From a virus (Duplodnaviria; Heunggongvirae; Uroviricota; Caudoviricetes), in IMG/VR virus record IMGVR_UViG_2925908680_000005, positions 1-43,384 of that record: DNA of 43,384 bases. One strand, 5' to 3'. Of the stretch, positions 13,715 through 14,128 are shown piece by piece (position 1 is the first letter of the stretch; each line of letters begins with the position of its first letter). The position numbers and the translations under genes were made by a program. The notes below the pieces were generated by a model that saw nothing but the letters and a program-made list of their open reading frames with translations, searched no databases and was not told the origin of the DNA.

Positions 13715-14128
13715 TTATAAAGATGACTGATATTTTACAACTCTGTTCATGGCATCTTTTTTCACCGAGCTGATATCAGTTCTTATTTTGGCTTCGTCAT
13801 TACTGTTTATCATGCTATTAACTTTTTGCACTGACATGCCGTTTCTTTCAGCCATTGCACATACAGCAGCATCGTATGAAGAACTCGCTGCGATGGATAT
13901 CACCTTGTTACACTCAAACACAGCACCTTCAGCAATATCAGATGCCGATGATGCTGGCTTGGTATAAGTCTTGACGTAGTGATCAATACAACTATCCTTC
14001 GCCGTCTTGGCAAGAGAAAAATCCATTTTAACTTTGTCGCAATATGCCTTATCAACACCGTCATAAACATCATAGGATGTCGAGCAAGCGGATATCAAAA
14101 ATACCGATAACAGCAATAATTCCTTCAT
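13715..14128 (-). CDS. small secreted lipoprotein of unknown function (moron candidate)
   Basis: 137 aa with signal peptide and lipobox (LLSVFLISAC); four Cys in mature part; AT-rich; own terminator. Confidence 0.55.
   Translation of the reverse strand: MKELLLLSVFLISACSTSYDVYDGVDKAYCDKVKMDFSLAKTAKDSCIDHYVKTYTKPASSASDIAEGAVFECNKVISIAASSSYDAAVCAMAERNGMSVQKVNSMINSNDEAKIRTDISSVKKDAMNRVVKYQSSL

Follow-up and report, generated by a model that had tools for sequence, protein, structure and literature searches.

The gene at positions 13,715 to 14,128 of a 43,384-nt stretch of DNA (positions 1 to 43,384 of the IMG/VR virus record IMGVR_UViG_2925908680_000005) encodes a lipoprotein and occupies a dedicated swap slot at the end of an operon for internal-virion/ejection proteins. 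The whole stretch is called the window below, and it is the genome of an epsilon15/phiV10-like short-tailed temperate E. coli phage of the genus Uetakevirus. The comparison with related phages establishes cassette replacement in this slot, not addition of a gene between otherwise adjacent genes. We tentatively read the lipoprotein as a phage-entry exclusion factor that may act under the outer membrane, and hold this with somewhat less than even confidence; context and analogy make such a function plausible. Phage accessory envelope lipoproteins are a kind already known, while the family, the fold and the logic of the slot were found undescribed in the literature searched.

The exchangeable slot and its cargoes

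The late genes lie on the minus strand in the order terminase, portal, capsid, a T7 gp14-family protein, three proteins of 862, 600 and 824 residues, and finally the lipoprotein gene. The products of 862, 600 and 824 residues are internal-virion/ejection-type proteins, and the last of them, which is gp17-like, shares 97% identity with phiV10p20, a protein annotated as 'virion structural protein'. The downstream neighbour of the lipoprotein gene is the convergent C-terminal part of a Bro-N antirepressor, beyond which follow the tailspike gene, an O-antigen acyltransferase-family gene, holins, endolysin, Rz/Rz1 and the integrase. The initial annotation had described an AT-rich lipoprotein gene at the junction of the internal-virion genes and the antirepressor, and both location and composition were confirmed. 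The guanine plus cytosine (GC) content of the gene, 39.1%, is low beside the 49.3% of the window and the 49-51% of the neighbouring virion genes, and places it within the lowest 3.2% of stretches of equal length. Coordinates are collected in Table 1.

The limits of the cassette were taken from a three-way alignment. The left break against phiV10 falls just past a 12-bp palindrome, GTGACATGTCAC, which abuts a terminator, and the right break falls at the Shine-Dalgarno sequence and the stop codon of the gp17-like gene. The slot was surveyed in 80 related viral contigs, which were recovered with the C-terminus of gp17. The 137-residue lipoprotein of the window was found in 20 of the 80 loci and a 46-residue peptide of the phiV10 type, annotated there with two transmembrane helices, in 15. 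A GTG-initiated hydrophobic peptide of 57 residues followed by a 98-residue hydrophobic protein was present in 38 loci, and a 41-residue hydrophobic peptide followed by an unrelated BLIP/BamE-like lipoprotein of 126 residues in six; the remaining locus carried another cargo. Epsilon15 has the 64-residue hydrophobic gp18 in its slot. There are at least five non-homologous cargoes, all of them small envelope proteins, and every cargo for which GC content was computed is AT-rich (36-39% GC).

The distance from the gp17 stop codon to the first copy of the palindrome is 426, 156/157, 488/489 or 596 nt depending on cargo type (74 of 80 loci). Because it was never below 156 nt in these 74 loci, the slot is never empty, and it was filled in all 74 related loci with a locatable end. 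This contradicts the earlier view of an extra gene inserted into the virion module. Cargo type is uncoupled from gp17, as loci whose gp17 C-terminus is 97% identical to that of the window hold other cargoes, and among about 316 complete E. coli genomes with this gp17 type the lipoprotein occurs in 22. A recent insertion was rejected, both because the slot is never empty and because the lipoprotein family is also found in the slot of phages with only 25-26% identical gp17. The turnover of cargoes suggests that the slot behaves like an arms-race locus.

The lipoprotein gene is tightly coupled to the gene before it. Its ATG begins 9 nt past the stop codon of the gp17-like gene, with the Shine-Dalgarno sequence lying over that stop, and the phiV10-type cargo has the same Shine-Dalgarno/stop arrangement with the same 9-nt spacing. 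On the minus strand, the region 14129-15000 has no sigma-70-like site with at least 9 of 12 matches. At best, two candidates with 8 of 12 matches came out of a relaxed hexamer scan, and a promoter of its own was rejected for the window copy. Given this coupling and the lack of a detectable promoter, the simplest view is that the gene forms the final cistron of the late operon rather than the stand-alone unit that had been proposed. Without a promoter of its own in this phage, it is probably expressed late in the lytic cycle rather than from the prophage.

An own terminator had been proposed as well, and this was correct only in part. An intrinsic terminator with a 7-bp GC-rich stem, a 4-nt loop and a T-run begins 15 nt past the lipoprotein stop codon, and the segment 13665-13720 folds with -17.3 kcal/mol (z = -2.6). 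A terminator at the end of the slot is, however, common to every alternative cargo; one is annotated at the matching place in phiV10, and gp18 of epsilon15 is also followed by one. The terminator is that of the slot and the late virion operon, not of the lipoprotein gene alone.

The organisation of the slot also bears on another explanation, namely that the cargo serves the phage's own late lytic cycle as an envelope-located helper made together with the ejection proteins. Such a helper might prepare the outer membrane or the periplasm for lysis, or shield released progeny from futile ejection on debris of the envelope ('lytic conversion' in the T5 sense). A gene that is co-oriented with the late gp17-like gene, tightly coupled to it and promoterless speaks for this explanation, as does a slot filled in every measurable locus with a shortest cargo of 156 nt, and the coupling to gp17 recurs in a very distant phage. 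On the other hand, the cargoes are non-homologous and differ in predicted location, some being outer-membrane lipoproteins by the +2 rule and others small hydrophobic peptides that are presumably in the inner membrane. The different cargoes at gp17 C-termini of about 97% identity run contrary to a specific partner role, and there is no podophage operon where homologues occur on a plasmid, within islands or, in antisense orientation, in a lambdoid prophage. The lysis cassette is, moreover, already complete and includes an embedded Rz1-type lipoprotein. We regard a role in the phage's own cycle as unlikely, though still credible.

The palindrome marks the distal edge of the slot. Three exact copies are present in the window (13700-13711, 30851-30862 and 33116-33127), against 0.11 expected by chance, and it stands at the slot end in 74 of the 80 related loci as the first copy past the gp17 stop codon. 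It is present in epsilon15 too, at the end of gp18, but is lacking in the distant phages of the Cedecea type and in positions 9000-21000 of the P22 genome, the part examined. Each of the three copies lies at a mosaic junction with respect to a prophage of E. coli strain P4; the breakpoints of P4 homology at 30824/30850 and 33100/33114 flank sites at which P4 has an extra gene (of 139 or 70 residues). A terminator hairpin directly follows two of the three copies. A recombination boundary and a binding site for a regulator are two possible roles for the palindrome.

A mini-ORF (open reading frame) of eight codons (MKYEFDGF, 30820-30846), preceded by a Shine-Dalgarno-like AAGGTG, stops shortly before the second copy of the palindrome. 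At this junction strain P4 has its additional 139-residue gene on the same strand, and the mini-ORF may be the remnant of a lost cargo gene.

Table 1. Positions of the lipoprotein gene, its slot and neighbouring genes in the window.
Feature	Position	Strand	Basis or remark
137-residue prolipoprotein coding sequence	13715..14128	-	ATG start; from the ORF list
Signal peptide, codons 1-14	14087-14128	-	agrees with lipobox rule
Lipid-modified Cys15 codon (predicted)	14084-14086	-	lipobox rule
Intrinsic terminator	13672..13699	-	terminator scan and fold; AGGCCGCAAAAGCGGCCT, then TGTTTT, at 13699-13682
Perfect 12-bp palindrome	13700..13711		distal edge of slot
Shine-Dalgarno AAGGA of lipoprotein gene	14135..14139	-	read from sequence; overlaps TAA stop (14138-14140) of gp17-like gene
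Exchangeable cassette, 422 bp	13713..14134		three-way alignment; phiV10 homology ends at 13712 and restarts at 14135
824-residue gp17-like virion/internal protein gene	14138..16612	-	phrog_684 'virion structural protein'; last large gene of ejection-protein operon
T7 gp14-family protein gene	20930-21475	-	in ejection-protein operon
862-residue ORF	18417-21005	-	counterpart protein in relatives bears SLT (lytic transglycosylase) domain
Tailspike gene	8542-10869
Acyl_transf_3 gene	7425-8540		33.7% GC; adjoins tailspike gene, as phiV10 oac does

The lipoprotein family

The N-terminus MKELLLLSVFLISAC agrees with the PROSITE-type lipoprotein rule, having Lys at position 2, the lipobox I-S-A-C (LISAC; pattern [LVI][ASTVI][GAS]C) and Cys15, and the earlier assignment as a lipoprotein gene thus stands. 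The h-region is uncharged and hydrophobic, with a mean Kyte-Doolittle value of 2.79 for residues 4-14. Past the lipobox Cys the sequence is hydrophilic on average (mean -0.32) and suggests no membrane span, and the mature lipoprotein would have about 122 residues. In E. coli, lipoproteins without Asp at position +2 after the modified Cys are sorted to the outer membrane by the Lol pathway (the +2 rule). The window protein has Ser at +2, and either Ser or Thr occupies this position in every family member. Since the residue is not Asp, outer-membrane sorting is predicted; lipidation and an outer-membrane location are put forward as predictions for the lipoprotein.

The ORF has been conserved across Escherichia, Enterobacter, Citrobacter and Cedecea. 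In a comparison with the most divergent of the close alleles we counted 29 synonymous and 7 non-synonymous codon changes, corresponding by a rough hand estimate to a ratio of non-synonymous to synonymous substitution rates (dN/dS) near 0.08. The gene is under purifying selection, and its retention across four genera together with the excess of synonymous changes argues that the ORF is not a chance one.

A full-length match was obtained to phrog_8691, a family of unknown function (E = 1.6e-91). Profile searches with Pfam, PHROGs, NCBIfam, PADLOC and PDB-sequence profiles gave, apart from phrog_8691, only sub-threshold noise (linker histone, Trans_coact). The superinfection exclusion function suggested at the outset was not matched by homology, as these searches detected no similarity to any known exclusion protein or immunity family. 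One of seven family members gave a match to EexN (NF033894) that was under the cut-off and not significant (E = 0.028), the matched region being uninspected, and one member matches Pfam LPAM_1. A tblastn search of the phage collection gave no match and hence no deposited phage genome with the lipoprotein gene, and literature searches by protein accessions and by the PHROG number yielded no description of the family. The family is very small: only 6 proteins were recovered when 1.84 billion representatives were searched exhaustively with a hidden Markov model, and 22 in a profile search of 5.8 billion, each of them belonging to Enterobacterales.

Seven diverse members with 26-82% identity were aligned. 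M1, C15, D26, C30, C47, C73, C90 and S99 are invariant, so that the lipobox Cys and four further cysteines are kept down to 26% identity. The AlphaFold2 (AF2) model is all-helical with a mean predicted local distance difference test (pLDDT) score of 86, and has two long antiparallel helices (residues 24-55 and 62-96). The four cysteines form two pairs on these helices, each pair spaced 17 residues apart (twin CX16C). This spacing is as needed for a proposed antiparallel helical hairpin that disulfides Cys30-Cys90 and Cys47-Cys73 would staple, and these putative disulfides imply an oxidising, periplasmic location. Between the lipid-modified Cys and the first helix there is a tether of about 8 residues, followed by a compact helical domain of about 115 residues. 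With so short a tether, the domain should sit close under the outer membrane.

This architecture makes it hardly credible that the lipoprotein is a virion component or an assembly factor of the ejection-protein complex. Such a role would agree only with the position in the operon, as the last gene after the internal-virion proteins. The conserved signal peptide and lipobox would direct the protein out of the cytoplasm, where capsids assemble, and the four invariant cysteines imply an oxidising compartment. A membrane peptide of 46 or 57 residues can also take its place at gp17 C-termini of about 97% identity.

Homologues were found both in other phages and on other mobile elements. A Cedecea prophage carries a lipoprotein with 54% identity directly after its gp17 (2-nt gap), although the two gp17-like proteins are only 25% identical, and a third lineage has a 26%-identical member at the same operon end with a gp17 of 26% identity. 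Judged from these sequences, horizontal transfer has taken place in the family, and yet its members are found time and again at the end of the ejection-protein operon. Past the stop codon of a distant member (P0022; L116 2180-2225), about seven tandem CCATAAA heptamers are followed by a terminator.

Family member P0020 lies in integrase/AlpA/DUF3987 islands, beside Gabija-type, UvrD/DEAD-MZB and type I and type III restriction genes. A genome scan with P0020 gave a single Providencia locus: a 95%-identical relative in a lambdoid prophage of Providencia sp. PAZ2 (L117 9940-10460), which is antisense between the Q antiterminator and holin genes and has a near-consensus promoter (TTGACA-17-TTAAAT), a Shine-Dalgarno sequence and a terminator of its own. 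A 4-kb Col3M Proteus plasmid has five genes, one of which encodes a 29%-identical member in which lipobox and cysteine spacing are kept. The occurrence on a prophage, islands and a plasmid indicates that the lipoprotein works alone and is valued by several kinds of mobile element, and this spread fits an accessory role in exclusion or host interaction.

By definition, a moron is transcribed independently and has been added between two genes that would otherwise be neighbours. The Providencia copy appears to be a textbook case, unlike the window copy, which has no promoter and sits in a replacement slot that is never empty. The window gene nevertheless resembles morons in its foreign base composition, the terminator directly downstream and the spread among unrelated mobile elements. 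Morons such as lambda bor and lom are described (PMC3594210) as having foreign composition, a downstream terminator, horizontal spread and a likely function in host interaction or competition.

The same homologues bear on two explanations that involve a benefit to the host. In the first, the lipoprotein is a fitness or virulence factor of the Bor/Lom type that acts by lysogenic conversion (serum resistance, adhesion or envelope robustness) and has no role between phages. In its favour, the phage is temperate, its E. coli host strains come from both animals and humans, and its cargo is an AT-rich lipoprotein; in addition, the Providencia promoter is strong and looks constitutive. We nonetheless consider it quite improbable, as there is no Pfam match to the Bor or Lom families, the window phage offers no promoter for expression from the prophage, and the gene is rare among the complete E. 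coli genomes with this phage type (the 22 of about 316 given above), with no obvious link to pathotype. In the second, the protein is a periplasmic immunity protein or inhibitor directed against a threat other than phages (a bacteriocin, a type VI effector or a host enzyme), a gene of benefit to the host that travels on mobile elements. No cognate toxin gene is adjacent in any context examined, no known immunity family is similar, and the repeated joining to a phage ejection-protein operon is left unexplained; this is distinctly unlikely.

Phage-entry exclusion as a candidate function

The points in favour of exclusion are the predicted topology, the arms-race-like turnover of cargoes, the spread over mobile elements (including positions beside defence genes) and three precedents, from which the function is argued by analogy.

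The first precedent is T5 Llp, an outer-membrane lipoprotein that acts from the periplasmic face (PMC9586334). Llp and Cor (T5, phi80-T1) contain disulfides and act alone (PMC9586334), and the lipoprotein described here shares the predicted topology and the autonomy of a single gene. No sequence or profile similarity between them was found, and Llp has 61 mature residues against about 122 in a protein modelled as all-helical. Genes of the Llp/Cor type lie directly downstream of the receptor-binding protein gene (PMC9586334), whereas the lipoprotein gene is downstream of the ejection-protein genes and separated from the tailspike gene (8542-10869) by the antirepressor region. Llp is early, the lipoprotein gene is in a late operon, and no TonB-dependent receptor is implicated for this type of phage.

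The second precedent is P22 SieA, which resides in the envelope, is encoded by a temperate podophage and prevents DNA delivery through an effect on the ejection-protein conduit (PMC10883804). The P22 map runs from ejection gene 16 to sieA, the ant region and the tailspike gene, so that sieA has a position equivalent to that of the lipoprotein gene. The two products have no sequence similarity, and the one described here is a lipoprotein whose gene is co-oriented with the ejection genes and promoterless. The SieA family comprises inner-membrane proteins expressed by the prophage from their own promoter; only the map position is analogous. The third precedent, T4 Spackle, is a compact alpha-helical bundle with a disulfide that resides in the periplasm and inhibits the tail lysozyme (the muralytic domain) of an incoming phage (PMC7677548). 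The parallel here is that the counterpart of the 862-residue ORF in relatives carries an SLT domain.

Rz1-type o-spanins are likewise phage-encoded outer-membrane lipoproteins, with the difference that the window gene is far from the lysis genes. An o-spanin function was rejected, as the gene is 7.7 kb away and has no partner i-spanin, and an embedded Rz1 is already present in the lysis cassette. This cassette (5493-7284) is complete, with an ORF bearing an LAGC lipobox embedded in the Rz gene (5493-5975), and phiV10 and epsilon15 are catalogued in the Bcep176 spanin family.

The proposed exclusion would work as follows. The lipoprotein would be made from the swap slot as the last cistron of the late internal-virion/ejection-protein operon, and the short tether would hold its helical, disulfide-stapled domain just beneath the outer membrane. 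From the tailspike and acyltransferase genes, the primary receptor of the epsilon15/phiV10 type of phage is presumed to be the O-antigen. As a periplasmic protein cannot mask the O-antigen, a step after adsorption is the logical target. Most likely, the lipoprotein would interfere with the conduit for ejection across the envelope, or with the muralytic component of that conduit; with less likelihood, it would jam an outer-membrane protein that is required after O-antigen binding. The former is favoured over the latter because the family is linked to ejection-protein genes, because known receptor-jamming genes adjoin the receptor-binding protein gene, and because the O-antigen cannot be masked from the periplasm. 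Taken on its own, the narrower proposal that exclusion operates via the ejection conduit specifically is rather unlikely.

Several points weigh against exclusion. No homology to any known exclusion factor was found, and the function is put forward from context and analogy. Late expression suits the protection of a lysogen poorly, and the precedents differ in timing: T4 Spackle is made early in infection, as is T5 Llp (PMC9586334), and P22 SieA is made by the prophage (PMC10883804). A slot that is always filled could instead mean that the cargo serves the phage's own late cycle. Closeness to defence genes in islands is limited to three contexts and might be no more than the sign of a general cargo hotspot.

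A wider version of the exclusion proposal, which is speculative and in our judgement rather unlikely to hold in full, concerns the slot as a whole. The stretch from the gp17 stop codon to GTGACATGTCAC would be a dedicated exclusion slot of epsilon15-like podophages, in which unrelated envelope proteins (lipoproteins of two families and a number of membrane peptides) are swapped and each would block the ejection conduit (T7 gp14/15/16 type) of rivals at a different layer of the envelope. The twin-CX16C lipoprotein would then be an inhibitor with a new fold, placed just under the outer membrane to catch ejection proteins such as the one with the SLT domain. Cargo sites would be marked by the palindrome, acting as a recombination or regulatory signal, since the two other copies of it are also at junctions of gene gain or loss.

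Genome setting and significance

The antirepressor gene downstream of the slot is split by a copy of the insertion element IS2 at about 11905-13227 (InsD ORF 11916-12821, InsC ORF 12779-13189). Its N-terminal part is inside ORF 11482-11991 and its C-terminal part is in 13208-13657; in E. coli strain P4 the antirepressor is unbroken (228 residues). A 126-residue ORF at 10942-11322 resembles the antirepressor C-terminal domain (phrog_450, E = 9e-48) and duplicates the one that closes the split gene.

Other strongly AT-rich stretches of the window are the Acyl_transf_3 gene and much of the tailspike gene, and their composition, together with the position of the acyltransferase gene beside the tailspike gene, fits exchangeable host-range and serotype-conversion modules. 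A complete Gabija pair is present on the minus strand (GajA 1863-3824, E = 5e-238; GajB 1-1866, E = 6e-215) directly past the integrase gene (3873-5108), and the window opens right at the gajB stop codon. A gap of only about 385 bp separates the integrase and Rz genes, as expected for the gene order of an unintegrated phage genome. Gabija therefore appears to be phage cargo.

Envelope proteins that stop the entry of other phages shape the competition between prophages and can defeat phage therapy. To our knowledge, characterised examples of phage-encoded entry-blocking envelope proteins are very few, and for short-tailed phages there is hardly one apart from P22 SieA. The locus is a compact case: one small gene represents a new family and fold, alternative cargoes on a near-identical genetic background form a natural panel, and homologues travel on plasmids, islands and other prophages. 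If the cargo is needed for the phage's own cycle, there would be an unrecognised envelope step in late podophage development. If exclusion is true, the lipoprotein would represent a new class of outer-membrane exclusion factor, and the end of the ejection-protein operon would be a predictable place to mine such factors. It might also reveal a step in podophage DNA delivery that is vulnerable from the periplasmic side of the outer membrane.
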